Positions 12,376-53,986 are shown, counted from the first letter of the stretch. The stretch is DNA of 64,000 bases from Escherichia coli (GCF_044647545.1 NZ_CP172818.1); one strand, 5' to 3'. Numbers and translations are program-made. Notes: generated by a model not told the origin, from the sequence alone.

Positions 12376-13788
<1,413 letters not shown>

Positions 13789-13909
13789 GGTGTTCTGGAA
13801 AGCGCCTCGCATAATCTGAAGAAAACCAATGTAATACGCACATCTGGATTGTTACCGGCCGATGCAGATCCCGGCGTATAGCTGATTCCATTATTCAACA
13901 CTGCGCCAT

Positions 13910-29364: not shown

Positions 29365-29397
29365 ACAAAAAACCGGAGTCTGTGCTCCGGTTTTTTA
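29365..29397. terminator. Intrinsic terminator hairpin between convergent degS and mdh
   Basis: ccggag-tctgtg-ctccgg hairpin flanked by A- and T-runs (possibly bidirectional). Confidence 0.7.
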
Positions 29398-38121: not shown

Positions 38122-38151
38122 TTAGTTACTGCAGTAGAGGTTTTTACGGCT

Positions 38152-49285: not shown

Positions 49286-50260
49286 ATGCAGGCGTTACTT
49301 TTAGAACAGCAGGACGGCAAAACTCTCGTATCGGTACAGACACTGGACGAAAGTCGCCTGCCGGAGGGCGATGTCACGGTTGATGTTCACTGGTCGAGCC
49401 TGAACTACAAAGATGCGCTGGCAATTACCGGTAAGGGAAAAATCATCCGTAATTTTCCGATGATTCCTGGGATCGATTTTGCCGGAACTGTACGCACCAG
49501 CGAAGATCCGCGTTTTCATGCCGGTCAGGACGTATTACTCACTGGCTGGGGCGTTGGTGAAAACCACTGGGGTGGGCTGGCGGAACAGGCGCGAGTGAAA
49601 GGTGACTGGCTGGTTGCCATGCCACAAGGGCTGGACGCGCGTAAAGCAATGATTATCGGTACTGCCGGTTTTACCGCCATGCTGTGTGTGATGGCGCTGG
49701 AAGATGCCGGTGTTCGCCCGCAGGATGGGGAGATTGTCGTGACGGGTGCCAGTGGTGGCGTCGGCAGTACCGCCGTGGCGCTGCTGCATAAGTTGGGTTA
49801 TCAGGTCGTTGCCGTTTCCGGTCGCGAAAGTACCCATGAATATCTGAAAAGTTTAGGTGCCAGCCGTATTCTCCCTCGCGATGAGTTTGCCGAATCCCGT
49901 CCTCTGGAAAAACAAGTCTGGGCAGGGGCAATTGACACCGTTGGCGACAAAGTGCTGGCAAAAGTGCTGGCGCAAATGAATTACGGCGGCTGCGTGGCGG
50001 CCTGTGGTCTGGCGGGTGGTTTTACTCTGCCAACCACGGTCATGCCATTTATTCTGCGTAATGTCCGTTTACAGGGGGTAGATTCAGTGATGACGCCACC
50101 AGCACGCCGCGCACAAGCCTGGCAGCGACTGGTCGCCGATTTACCGGAATCATTCTATACCCAGGCGGCAAAAGAGATATCTCTGGCAGATGCACCGAAG
50201 TTTGCCGAGGCCATCATTAATAACCAGATCCAGGGTCGCACGCTGGTGAAGGTTAACTAA
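49286..50260 (+). CDS. acuI: Acrylyl-CoA reductase AcuI (YhdH), MDR/zinc-ADH superfamily
   Basis: 324-aa ORF MQALLLEQQDGKTLVSVQTLDESRLPEGDVTVDVHWSSLNYKDALAITGKGKIIRNFPMIPGIDFAG... Confidence 0.93.
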   Translation: MQALLLEQQDGKTLVSVQTLDESRLPEGDVTVDVHWSSLNYKDALAITGKGKIIRNFPMIPGIDFAGTVRTSEDPRFHAGQDVLLTGWGVGENHWGGLAEQARVKGDWLVAMPQGLDARKAMIIGTAGFTAMLCVMALEDAGVRPQDGEIVVTGASGGVGSTAVALLHKLGYQVVAVSGRESTHEYLKSLGASRILPRDEFAESRPLEKQVWAGAIDTVGDKVLAKVLAQMNYGGCVAACGLAGGFTLPTTVMPFILRNVRLQGVDSVMTPPARRAQAWQRLVADLPESFYTQAAKEISLADAPKFAEAIINNQIQGRTLVKVN

Positions 50261-50562
50261 CCATTTAGCAAGGATTAATAAGAGAGGGAACTCATTTTGA
50301 AATCATTATTCAATCGGTTAACGGGAAAAGCGGTTAGCCGGACAGCTTTCGTCGAACATCTTGGTCATGAAGTTGTACAACATCATCCAAACTGGAAAGT
50401 CATGATTTCGACTGACCATAAATTGATGCGCATTGATACTCACCAAACGGTAAATCACTCTTGATGATCTACAAATAACAAAAATAATATAAAAAAAACA
50501 TTTAAAAAAAAAAACGCCTCGCTGGATTTTGCCTGGGAAGACTTAACGATGAGTTAATTATC

Positions 50563-50735
50563 TTGTTTGCTGAAGATGGTAGCGAAACCATGCGCTATCT
50601 GATGCGCTACGAAGTGACCATTGACCGCGAACAAGCCATCAATAATTTGAAGCAAATATTGCCGGAAGTTTCGGCTGAAATCGTTGATACAGGCGCAAAC
50701 GCTGGAAAATTTGCCGTTATCTCCCCAGGGGTCTT
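50563..50735 (+). other. Candidate protein-coding start (ORF N-terminus) that runs into the low-complexity tract; product unknown
   Basis: Track ORF 50563..50988; first ~58 codons (…MRYLMRYEVTIDREQAINNLKQILPEVSAEIVDTGANAGKFAVISPG) have E. coli-like codon usage, then the frame enters homopolymer sequence; not recognised. Confidence 0.25.
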
Positions 50736-50736
50736 T

Positions 50737-51120
50737 AGACCCCCCTCTTGTTCCTTTTACCTTTTCGCCAACCCCCCCCCAAATTTTTATCCCCCCCCCC
50801 AAAAAAAATTTTTTTTCCCCACAAAAAAAACCACCCAAAACCCCACCCATAATAAAAAAAAAAAAAAAAAATTCCCCCCTGCAAGAACCACCCCTCCAAA
50901 AAAAAAAATTTATCCCCCCCAAACTCTCTTTTCCCCGGAAAAAACCCTTCATCAACCCACCCCCCCAGATAAAAAAAATTGGGGATGATGGTAAAAATTC
51001 AAAAACACCAAACGCCTTTCCCCAAAAATTTTTTTTTTTTTTTAGCGAAAAAATCAAAAAACAAAAAAACGCACTGCCGCCTGACAAAACAGTTTACCTT
51101 CTGCAAAATGGGGGGAATAA
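50737..51120. other. Anomalous low-complexity tract: A/C/T homopolymer runs, almost no G; probable sequencing/assembly artefact
   Basis: Read directly: runs such as c9, a8, t8, a18, t14 interspersed over ~380 bp; strong strand asymmetry; unlike any surrounding sequence. Confidence 0.8.
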
Positions 51121-51232
51121 TCTGATTTTATTTGATTACAAATTAACCACTTAAACCTATTTCATACTGAGCATTATCAGTCGGTTGATTTTGCGTGCTT
51201 TAGCATTCACATCTATCCAGACGATGCAGTGA

Positions 51233-51400
51233 AAATTGGGCAATCCCCAGCAACCGCTGCGTAATGTCGTCTATCTTGTCGCGATCCTGGCATCCCTACA
51301 TTATTTGTGGTCTGTGAAGATTATCTCATTGCAGCCCCTCATCTTCGCAGGGCTGGCTTTACAGCTTTTCACCTTACGTTATAAGAAGTTCCGTCGATGA
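51233..51400 (+). pseudogene. Possible 3' remnant of an msrQ/yedZ-like heme-binding membrane protein gene (no start codon, <60 codons)
   Basis: Frame translation …[39 protein letters not shown] resembles the MsrQ (YedZ) C-terminus as I recall it (HYLWSVKII…LRYKK); not verified by alignment. Confidence 0.3.
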
Positions 51401-51804
51401 TGGCGCTAATTTCGTGAATTGTGCGGCTTGTTGCAAATTACACGGTGTTGAAGGTTATTTACATGTTAGCTGTTGATTATCTTCCCTGATAAGACCAGTA
51501 TTTAGCTGCCAATTGCTACGAAATCGTTATAATGTGCGACCTCGTCCTCCCTGACGCAGTTTTTGCGCTGCGGAAAAGGTGACATTGGCGCAACGAAGGT
51601 ATATTTTGTTTTTTGCCGGAGGATAGCAGCAGATCGCTGCACAATGTCCGTCAAGTCTAACATTGACACTCTGGGGCAAAATAGACCGGCGTCCCGGCCT
51701 GCTGGAATTTATCGCTATGCATACAGCTGTCGGGGCATACGCTTTACAGACGGCGGTGAAACGCCTGTCACAATCACACTAAACAAAGAGTACGGAACCC
51801 ACTC

Positions 51805-52275
51805 ATGGATATTCGTAAGATTAAAAAACTGATCGAGCTGGTTGAAGAATCAGGCATCTCCGAACTGGAAATTTCTGAAGGCGAAGAGTCAGTACGCATT
51901 AGCCGTGCAGCTCCTGCCGCAAGTTTCCCTGTGATGCAACAAGCTTACGCTGCACCAATGATGCAGCAGCCAGCTCAATCTAACGCAGCCGCTCCGGCGA
52001 CCGTTCCTTCAATGGAAGCGCCAGCAGCAGCGGAAATCAGTGGTCACATCGTACGTTCCCCGATGGTTGGTACTTTCTACCGCACCCCAAGCCCGGACGC
52101 AAAAGCGTTCATCGAAGTGGGTCAGAAAGTCAACGTGGGCGATACCCTGTGCATCGTTGAAGCCATGAAAATGATGAACCAGATCGAAGCAGACAAATCC
52201 GGTACTGTGAAAGCAATTCTGGTCGAAAGTGGACAACCGGTAGAATTTGACGAGCCGCTGGTCGTCATCGAGTAA
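51805..52275 (+). CDS. accB: Biotin carboxyl carrier protein AccB
   Basis: 156-aa [37 protein letters not shown]… with biotinylation motif EAMKMMN. Confidence 0.97.
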
Positions 52276-52285
52276 CGAGGCGAAC

Positions 52286-53635
52286 ATGCTGGATAAAATT
52301 GTTATTGCCAACCGCGGCGAGATTGCATTGCGTATTCTTCGTGCCTGTAAAGAACTGGGCATCAAGACTGTCGCTGTGCACTCCAGCGCGGATCGCGATC
52401 TAAAACACGTATTACTGGCAGATGAAACGGTCTGTATCGGCCCTGCTCCGTCAGTAAAAAGTTATCTGAACATCCCGGCAATCATCAGCGCCGCTGAAAT
52501 CACCGGCGCAGTAGCAATCCATCCGGGCTACGGCTTCCTCTCCGAGAACGCCAACTTTGCCGAGCAGGTTGAGCGCTCCGGCTTTATCTTCATTGGCCCG
52601 AAAGCAGAAACCATTCGCCTGATGGGCGACAAAGTATCCGCAATCGCGGCGATGAAAAAAGCGGGCGTTCCTTGCGTACCGGGTTCTGACGGCCCGCTGG
52701 GCGACGATATGGATAAAAACCGCGCCATTGCTAAACGCATTGGTTATCCGGTAATTATCAAAGCCTCCGGCGGCGGCGGCGGTCGCGGTATGCGCGTAGT
52801 GCGCGGCGACGCTGAACTGGCACAATCCATCTCCATGACCCGTGCGGAAGCGAAAGCTGCTTTCAGCAACGATATGGTTTACATGGAGAAATACCTGGAA
52901 AATCCTCGCCACGTCGAGATTCAGGTACTGGCTGACGGTCAGGGCAACGCTATCTATCTGGCGGAACGTGACTGCTCCATGCAGCGCCGCCACCAGAAAG
53001 TGGTCGAAGAAGCACCAGCACCGGGCATTACCCCGGAACTGCGTCGCTACATCGGCGAACGTTGCGCTAAAGCATGTGTTGATATCGGCTATCGCGGTGC
53101 AGGTACTTTCGAGTTCCTGTTCGAAAATGGCGAGTTCTATTTCATCGAAATGAACACCCGTATTCAGGTAGAACACCCGGTTACTGAAATGATCACCGGC
53201 GTTGACCTGATCAAAGAACAGCTGCGTATCGCTGCCGGTCAACCGCTGTCGATCAAGCAAGAAGAAGTTCACGTTCGCGGCCATGCGGTAGAGTGCCGTA
53301 TCAACGCCGAAGATCCGAACACCTTCCTGCCAAGTCCGGGCAAAATCACCCGTTTCCATGCACCTGGCGGTTTTGGCGTGCGTTGGGAGTCTCATATCTA
53401 CGCGGGCTACACCGTACCGCCGTACTATGACTCAATGATCGGTAAGCTGATTTGCTACGGTGAAAACCGTGACGTGGCGATTGCCCGCATGAAGAATGCG
53501 CTGCAGGAACTGATCATCGACGGTATCAAAACCAACGTTGATCTGCAGATCCGCATCATGAATGACGAGAACTTCCAGCATGGTGGCACTAACATCCACT
53601 ATCTGGAGAAAAAACTCGGTCTTCAGGAAAAATAA
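52286..53635 (+). CDS. accC: Biotin carboxylase AccC
   Basis: ORF 52247..53635; likely start [33 protein letters not shown] (449 aa). Confidence 0.97.
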
Positions 53636-53651
53636 GACTGCAAAAGCGCTC

Positions 53652-53678
53652 AAAAGGCCGGATTTTCCGGCCTTTTTT
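53652..53678 (+). terminator. Intrinsic terminator after accC
   Basis: aaaaggccgg-atttt-ccggcc hairpin followed by T6. Confidence 0.7.
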
Positions 53679-53743
53679 ATTACTGGGGATTGATATCTAC
53701 ATAAGGTACAATCCTCGTTCTCTTCACCCATCAGGGACAAAAA

Positions 53744-53986
53744 ATGGACACTCGTTTTGTTCAGGCCCATAAAGAGGCGCGCTGGGCGCTGGGGCTGACC
53801 CTTTTGTATCTGGCGGTATGGTTAGTAGCCGCTTACTTACCTGGCGTTACCCCCGGTTTTACCGGCTTTCCACGCTGGTTTGAGATGGCTTGCATCCTGA
53901 CGCCGCTGCTGTTTATTGGACTGTGCTGGGCGATGGTGAAATTTATCTATCGCGATATCCCGCTGGAGGATGACGATGCAGCTTGA
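53744..53986 (+). CDS. yhdT: Small membrane protein YhdT (DUF997)
   Basis: 80-aa ORF with two TM segments; overlaps the panF start. Confidence 0.88.
   Translation: MDTRFVQAHKEARWALGLTLLYLAVWLVAAYLPGVTPGFTGFPRWFEMACILTPLLFIGLCWAMVKFIYRDIPLEDDDAA

Follow-up and report, generated by a model that had tools for sequence, protein, structure and literature searches.

The window, by which we mean the whole stretch of 64,000 nucleotides of Escherichia coli DNA that was analysed, carries an interval at 50261-51804 between acuI (49286-50260) and accB (51805-52275), in and around which the following features were placed.

49286-50260, plus strand: acuI (yhdH), acrylyl-CoA reductase; intact left flank with an ORF of 324 amino acids, annotated as acuI by PGAP.
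50297-50955, plus strand: garbled copy of the 831-bp gene for the 276-amino-acid putative DUF1444/YtpQ-family protein WP_000838294.1, placed by alignment to the intact gene in strain DFL.5 (L001 1598-2428); its 3' end falls within abnormal sequence and is therefore approximate.
50297-50439, plus strand: gene nt 1-143 (codons 1-47), error-free, an exact match to L001; retained in K-12-type genomes as yrdF.
50440-50512, no strand assigned: first abnormal tract, which disrupts the reading frame.
50513-50731, plus strand: island that is clean but for three errors, corresponding to gene nt 358-577 (codons 120-192).
50563-50988, plus strand: spurious 141-amino-acid ORF in which the real codons 137-192 are fused to translated junk; present in RefSeq as a hypothetical protein.
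50732-51069, no strand assigned: second abnormal tract, 338 homopolymer-rich and G-poor bases in place of 384 real bases.
51098-51400, plus strand: msrQ (yedZ)-like pseudogene remnant, equivalent to K-12 yrdE (b4646); MsrQ residues 97-193 plus the stop codon.
51506-51533, plus strand: best sigma-70-like site upstream of accB, CTGCCA-16-TATAAT, found by consensus match; the same site is present in L001.
51805-52275, plus strand: accB, biotin carboxyl carrier protein; intact right flank with an ORF of 156 amino acids, annotated as accB by PGAP.

The interval is composed of three clean coding-like pieces (50297-50439, 50513-50731, and 51098-51400), which are separated by two abnormal tracts (50440-50512 and 50732-51069). 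A preliminary description of this DNA had seen gene fragments and no intact gene here, and indeed no known gene is intact among its ORFs. Both coding-like pieces that it named are present, while the third fragment at 50297-50439 and the shorter tract at 50440-50512 had escaped it, and the ORF that it read as an N-terminus at 50563 running into low-complexity sequence does enter the second tract at approximately 50732, although position 50563 corresponds to codon 137 of 276 and not to the beginning of a protein. On both sides the interval agrees exactly with one and the same locus of the strains DFL.5 (L001) and FDAARGOS_497, on the left over 50200-50439, including the final 61 bases of acuI, and on the right over 51070-51860, including the initial 56 bases of accB; the whole of accB is identical to FDAARGOS_497 (51070-53635). 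When 50200-51860 was compared with the complete E. coli genomes by megablast, 5425 of the 5426 matched, and none reached more than 77% query coverage because the abnormal sequence matches nothing. The compared span contains 1661 bases in the window vs. 1849 in the intact allele, which is 188 bases longer in the best matches FDAARGOS_497 and DFL.5. The FDAARGOS_497 locus is NZ_CP033850.1:909221-910952, and the canonical interval measures 1732 bp, as against 1.54 kb in the window.

The best 30 matches among the complete genomes are all annotated with an intact coding sequence in this interval, named either hypothetical protein or DUF1444 domain-containing protein, and DFL.5 and FDAARGOS_497, which were inspected directly, both carry an 831-bp gene right after acuI. 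Because these strains with identical flanks have an intact 831-bp ORF, the fragments at 50297-50439 and 50513-50731 and the garbled sequence up to approximately 50955 are read as one gene of 276 codons, the true start of which is the TTG at 50297. Compared with this gene, seven bases (six G and one C) are deleted at 50440-50475, and 37 A-rich bases at 50476-50512 stand in place of 171 real bases (gene nt 187-357). The errors of the following island at 50513-50731 are a T lost at 50543, a G>T exchange at 50710, and a G>C exchange at 50725. The real bases under the second tract are gene nt 578-831 including the stop codon and 130 nt downstream including the terminator (L001 2491-2519), which is unrecognizable in the window. 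In total, the corrupted zone at 50440-51069 presents 630 bases for 818 real ones, which begin at gene nt 144 and extend 130 nt beyond the stop, with a net loss of 188. The window contains no intact DUF1444/YtpQ ORF, the frame being destroyed in 50440-50512 and in 50732-51069, and this absence is attributed to sequence error rather than to biology. The earlier suggestion of a real gene hidden by bad sequence is thereby borne out for 50297 to approximately 50955, with the correction that the gene is of the DUF1444/YtpQ type and neither msrP nor msrQ.

Of the 5426 complete E. coli genomes, 667 possess the whole gene, which PGAP calls there as a coding sequence, while its first 143 bp are present in 5425; nearly all genomes without the full gene keep just the first 140-143 bp, and most of the gene is deleted in approximately 88% of E. 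coli. In K-12 the stub is the pseudogene yrdF (b4697, 143 bp). Escherichia albertii has the gene in the same position (92% identity), and this was the only species returned by a scan of genome contigs with the 276-amino-acid protein. The dN/dS of 0.14 between E. coli and E. albertii indicates that the gene is under purifying selection.

An exhaustive HMMER search with a limit of E <= 1e-3 yielded 965 cluster representatives, most of which measure 260-300 amino acids and are about 30-38% identical to the query, while relatives with 61-63% identity reside on plasmid-like contigs together with KfrA_N and Aca2 genes. The direct match to PF07285 (DUF1444) is weak (E=0.025), yet it is near full-length (model positions 15-254 of 264), and the match to NCBIfam PRK13668 is likewise weak (E=2.5e-4, 20.7 bits vs. 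a cut-off of 221). When this protein and 64 of its HMMER relatives (22-60% identity) were aligned, 60 of these 65 sequences matched PF07285 at E<=1e-3. A confident AlphaFold2 model of the protein (pLDDT 91.1, pTM 0.80) was compared by Foldseek with AFDB50 and gave full-length alignments to models named DUF1444 or YtpQ, with E values from 1e-21 to 1e-16 and TM scores of 0.52-0.70; the rmsd of these alignments is high, which is consistent with a hinge movement between domains. Transitive sequence evidence and the full-length fold match point to membership of the DUF1444/UPF0354 family, with a direct Pfam score that is sub-threshold. The protein and its profile found no match in PADLOC, in PHROGs, and in PDB sequence searches, and because these searches gave nothing, a reading of the gene as part of a defence system or as a phage gene was rejected.

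Downstream of the corrupted zone, 51098-51400 is a genuine and old pseudogene remnant of msrQ that is non-functional. It contains two in-frame stops (TAA and TGA) and lacks the N-terminal half; a complete MsrQ ORF of about 200-211 amino acids with the N-terminal transmembrane half is absent, and residues 97-193 alone remain. The ORF at 51236-51400, which ends ...[33 protein letters not shown], forms part of this remnant. Its 54-amino-acid frame matches NCBIfam NF003831 (MsrQ) with E=2.1e-10 at profile positions 142-193 of 212, with a score of 40 bits that stays below the curated cut-off of 130 bits because only a fragment is scored. The conceptual translation of 95 amino acids is 66% identical by BLASTP (E=2e-31) to residues 103-195 of K-12 MsrQ, and by tblastn the remnant (residues 97-193) is 65% identical to K-12 MsrQ and 58% to that of Citrobacter. 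The likeness to the MsrQ C-terminus that had been noted for a frame at 51233-51400 is confirmed by these scores as going far beyond chance, except that the remnant begins further upstream, at approximately 51098, and runs across the two in-frame stops. In DFL.5, PGAP annotates the remnant as a pseudogene (L001 2587-2889; 'cytochrome b family protein', 'internal stop; incomplete; missing N-terminus'), and in FDAARGOS_497 the identical sequence is unannotated. A shorter remnant exists in E. albertii, and window positions 51108-51400 align with K-12 yrdE at approximately 98%. A homologue search with the remnant returned other remnants called as small ORFs and no full-length MsrQ. No remnant of msrP was found by tblastn with the Citrobacter and K-12 MsrP proteins in the intervals of the window, DFL.5, NCTC86, K-12, and E. 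albertii (best E 0.58).

The working msrPQ genes of K-12 are b1971/b1972, next to hiuH at 2.04 Mb and thus at another locus, as the preliminary description had stated. In two Citrobacter loci (L013 and L014) the gene order is mreB-csrD-acuI-msrP-msrQ-accB-accC, with the genes called by domain (MreB, CsrD-like, ADH_N/ADH_zinc_N, Oxidored_molyb, Ferric_reduct, Biotin_lipoyl, and accC), and the position of the remnant corresponds to that of the Citrobacter msrQ, between acuI-msrP and accB. Presumably msrPQ adjoins accB in Salmonella as well, and the STM3377/STM3378 numbering fits this arrangement. These two tags denote msrP and msrQ of Salmonella (PMC10083560). Because Citrobacter keeps acuI-msrP-msrQ-accB at this position, the notion of a decayed ancestral msrPQ locus behind the remnant, which is already catalogued as yrdE, is supported: the ancestral order acuI-msrP-msrQ-accB, still found in Citrobacter, would have decayed in the Escherichia lineage, in which the working msrPQ lies next to hiuH. 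A decayed msrPQ-like locus had been proposed before, and for 51098-51400 the MsrQ residues 97-193 and the Citrobacter synteny speak for it, while its msrP part has left no detectable trace. The locus lost to decay in Escherichia would thus correspond in position to msrPQ of Citrobacter and, judged from the locus tags, of Salmonella.

Taken together, the acuI-accB interval of the organism almost certainly has the haplotype found in a minority of E. coli. The order in this haplotype would be acuI, the intact 831-bp DUF1444/YtpQ gene with its own terminator, the fixed yrdE remnant, the promoter and leader of accBC, and accB, in which the site at 51506-51533 is a predicted candidate for the accBC promoter. 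K-12-type genomes keep an extra 101 bp of the msrQ remnant (MsrQ residues ~70-100, in another frame) that are absent from the window haplotype, and because of this retention the two haplotypes are best read as different deletions of an ancestor with the DUF1444 gene and a longer msrPQ remnant. The content of the locus is already known, as yrdF/yrdE in K-12 and as a DUF1444 coding sequence and an msrQ pseudogene in PGAP records; in the literature, yrdE and yrdF were found solely as marker positions. The K-12 spacer between acuI and accB had been taken as non-coding, which is incorrect in view of the annotated pseudogenes yrdF (b4697) and yrdE (b4646), and the interval does not align with it end to end, since 50449-51107 lacks a K-12 counterpart.

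The corrupted tracts stand out from everything else in the window. A scan of the 64 kb found the low-complexity tract to be unique and to account for almost every homopolymer run of at least 8 bases; 50692-51130 is the sole stretch in which >50% of the bases repeat the previous base, and 50730-50981 the sole stretch with G below 6%. The second tract contains runs of A18, T15, and C10, and its GC skew falls to -0.9. Over approximately 50 kb, the window differs from FDAARGOS_497 outside the interval by one SNP and a few small indels, as against hundreds of differences inside 50440-51069, and the 19 kb upstream are 100.0% identical to ST648-type genomes. In a global alignment of the second tract with its true counterpart, the score is 32 vs. 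-76 +/- 9 for shuffled sequences (z = 11.9), and 225 of 387 columns are identical. The bases are retained very unequally (A 82%, C 69%, T 55%, and G 19%), and 100 of the 110 mismatches copy the adjacent called base, so that neighbours appear smeared into homopolymers; in the lightly affected margins, G is removed or replaced in eight of ten errors. For the first tract, a reading as the true sequence with G and C dropped was rejected as a poor fit by eye, and its 37 bases for 171 are too short for statistics.

The 141-amino-acid ORF at 50563-50988 corresponds exactly to WP_400165336.1, 'hypothetical protein [Escherichia coli]', which occurs on one contig only (4,499,902 bp) in a search among approximately 15 billion proteins; the other member of its cluster (L015) is a frameshifted Logan contig of the same gene. 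Because this ORF is on a single contig, we conclude that the window derives from a deposited assembly and that the tract is unique to that record, its uniqueness being judged through the protein since the abnormal DNA itself is masked by BLAST. Collinearity with the intact gene, a directional error spectrum, identical flanks, confinement of the abnormal sequence to one record, homology, and synteny are all observed here, and the tracts are very probably an artefact of base calling or assembly and not the product of pseudogenization, where we infer the technical cause, as well as the technical step at which it arose, from the sequence alone. G calls would have been lost and neighbouring bases smeared into homopolymers, by which the frame was broken and the apparent fragments arose. 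We know of no mutational process that produces loss of G together with copying of neighbours beside approximately 50 kb of near-zero divergence.

A separate observation, which speaks against a plain artefact, is that the almost error-free rest of the window is unusual for a generally poor assembly.

A refinement of the artefact explanation, which does not contradict it, places the origin of the errors where the sequence differs in structure from a reference or a second haplotype, by reference-guided consensus, gap-filling, or polishing of mixed reads from two E. coli haplotypes, and we regard it as a plausible but tentative proposal. The corrupted zone at 50440-51069 nearly fills 50449-51107, the only part of the window without a counterpart in the K-12 region, and it begins at gene nt 144, which is the point at which yrdF is truncated in K-12-type genomes. 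As a random low-quality patch is unlikely to fill the K-12-absent segment, an interaction with the structural polymorphism appears likely, and a second oddity is located at another K-12/F-type structural junction, the 3' end of gltD (13785-13792 and 13865-13869). This has to be weighed against 220 bp that are nearly perfect inside the K-12-absent segment, and against the accC-yhdT spacer, which differs from K-12 by several SNPs and so excludes a simple carry-over. The window as a simple consensus on a K-12 reference was rejected on account of these SNPs and of a divergence of 2-2.4% from K-12 throughout.

That the low-complexity tracts are real DNA, in which the DUF1444-family gene has truly decayed by substitutions and deletions, is very improbable. 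The site is a known place of decay, with the gene mostly deleted in approximately 88% of E. coli and with a pseudogene, msrQ, as its neighbour, and the coincidence of the corrupted zone with the polymorphic segment would suit this reading as well. Nevertheless, no clock-like decay fits >250 changes in 630 bp beside approximately 50 kb that differ from ST648-type genomes by one SNP, and the changes are directional, in that G is lost and neighbours are copied in 100 of the 110 mismatches; moreover, the tract is found on one contig only, and the other carriers have an intact gene that is under purifying selection. Foreign low-complexity DNA, for example the relic of a mobile element or an expanded simple sequence, that was inserted or took the place of the native sequence could account for the sharp shift in composition with its GC skew to -0.9 and its long A, T, and C runs, but such an origin can practically be dismissed in view of a tract that is collinear with the native sequence (z = 11.9), an interval that is shorter and not longer than the intact allele (1661 vs. 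1849 bases), and the lack of terminal repeats, target duplications, and coding capacity.

If the tracts are an artefact, as we consider very probable, the practical value of the finding lies in quality control, as a public E. coli assembly would contain approximately 630 faulty bases that destroy a real gene. The faulty tract has seeded RefSeq with the spurious protein WP_400165336.1 and could pass for a lineage-specific pseudogenization.

With regard to known systems, the sole characterized member of the family to which the hidden gene probably belongs is Priestia megaterium YtpQ/CgoN, a coproporphyrinogen III oxidase that is oxygen-independent and requires FAD, for which the paper defines no conserved catalytic residues (PMC10965808). 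YtpQ/CgoN would share with the hidden protein the same Pfam family and has a similar length of ~270 amino acids, while it differs in that the structure matches to the hidden protein are about 20-36% identical and the direct Pfam match of the latter has an E value of 0.025. E. coli makes heme by the protoporphyrin route, and because of this and of the identity of only ~20-36%, the activity of CgoN is neither expected in nor transferable to the E. coli protein. That full-length YrdF is a functional enzyme and not a passenger, maybe a flavoprotein like CgoN that would use a porphyrinogen or some related substrate and was originally linked to the heme-binding MsrQ encoded next door, is an unlikely idea by analogy; if it were true, the polymorphism in the presence of YrdF, which ~12% of E. 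coli as well as E. albertii keep, would matter for metabolism.

A close counterpart of the window copy is the gene for WP_000838294.1 of the ST648-type strains FDAARGOS_497 and DFL.5, with which the clean parts are identical at the DNA level and which has the same flanks and gene order, whereas in the window copy 818 bases are replaced by 630 abnormal ones and no readable ORF is left. MsrQ (YedZ; NF003831, PF01794), the heme-binding membrane subunit of the periplasmic methionine sulfoxide reductase MsrPQ, resembles the remnant with the 65% identity to the K-12 protein over residues 97-193, but the remnant comprises the C-terminal half only, contains two in-frame stops, and has no msrP partner. 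Finally, yrdF (b4697) and yrdE (b4646) of K-12 occupy the same chromosomal position, with 50297-50439 equivalent to yrdF and 51108-51400 to yrdE; in contrast to K-12, the haplotype of the window (667 of 5426 genomes) keeps the whole yrdF gene, which in this record is also garbled, whereas K-12-type genomes, unlike this haplotype, retain the extra 101 bp of the msrQ remnant.

Of the whole 64-kb window, solely the segment at 50449-51107 has no equivalent in the K-12 region, and this segment overlaps almost exactly the zone of garbled bases at 50440-51069, which lies inside and downstream of the 831-bp DUF1444/YtpQ-family gene between acuI and accB. Moreover, the corruption sets in at nucleotide 144 of this gene, which is the point at which yrdF, the remaining stub, is truncated in K-12-type genomes. 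Because the corrupted zone matches the K-12-absent segment and begins at the yrdF truncation point, these data suggest that the artefact is linked to the structural polymorphism. The corruption has also entered the databases: in the ORF at 50563-50988, the real codons 137-192 of the gene are followed by translated junk, and RefSeq lists its product under WP_400165336.1 as a "hypothetical protein [Escherichia coli]", which was found on one contig (4,499,902 bp) and is a spurious database protein.

The two haplotypes at this locus differ furthermore in a remnant of msrQ. K-12-type genomes keep 101 bp encoding MsrQ residues ~70-100 (LLIRLRRLLGLWCFAWATL...), which the full-gene haplotype, to which the window belongs, lacks:

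Extra 101-bp msrQ piece: 2644-2744 of L003, the acuI-accB locus of E. coli NCTC86; K-12 region 3404638-3405031

The two haplotypes therefore go back to different deletions of one longer ancestral arrangement.

Apart from the differences noted, the window is ~100% identical to the ST648-type strain FDAARGOS_497. That strain carries an IS4 copy beside mdh, which is absent from the window (29376-29387), and between accC and yhdT an 8.7-kb island encoding a sugar-ABC transporter and a tagatose-bisphosphate aldolase, which the window also lacks (53636-53744); its empty accC-yhdT spacer shows several SNPs compared to K-12. Among the very few differences from FDAARGOS_497 outside the acuI-accB interval is a 2-bp change at 38141 in the tldD-yhdP intergenic region, where AT is missing ahead of a T run. 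When set against either FDAARGOS_497 or K-12, gltD is shortened at its 3' end (13785-13869): one base and then ~73 bases are absent, taking the final six codons and the stop codon, and 5 bp are inserted at 13865-13869. The resulting ORF (12388-13788) encodes 466 instead of 472 amino acids. This site is the junction that holds gltF-yhcF (7.1 kb) in K-12, genes which the lineage of the window lacks, and the loss may be either a true deletion or another defect of the assembly.

Two short Logan contigs, L005 (3898-4731) and L006, encode homologues of the DUF1444-family protein with 61-63% identity, which are neighbored there by KfrA_N and Aca2/YdiL genes. These surroundings are plasmid-like or mobile, which hints at horizontal movement of the DUF1444 gene family among enterobacteria.
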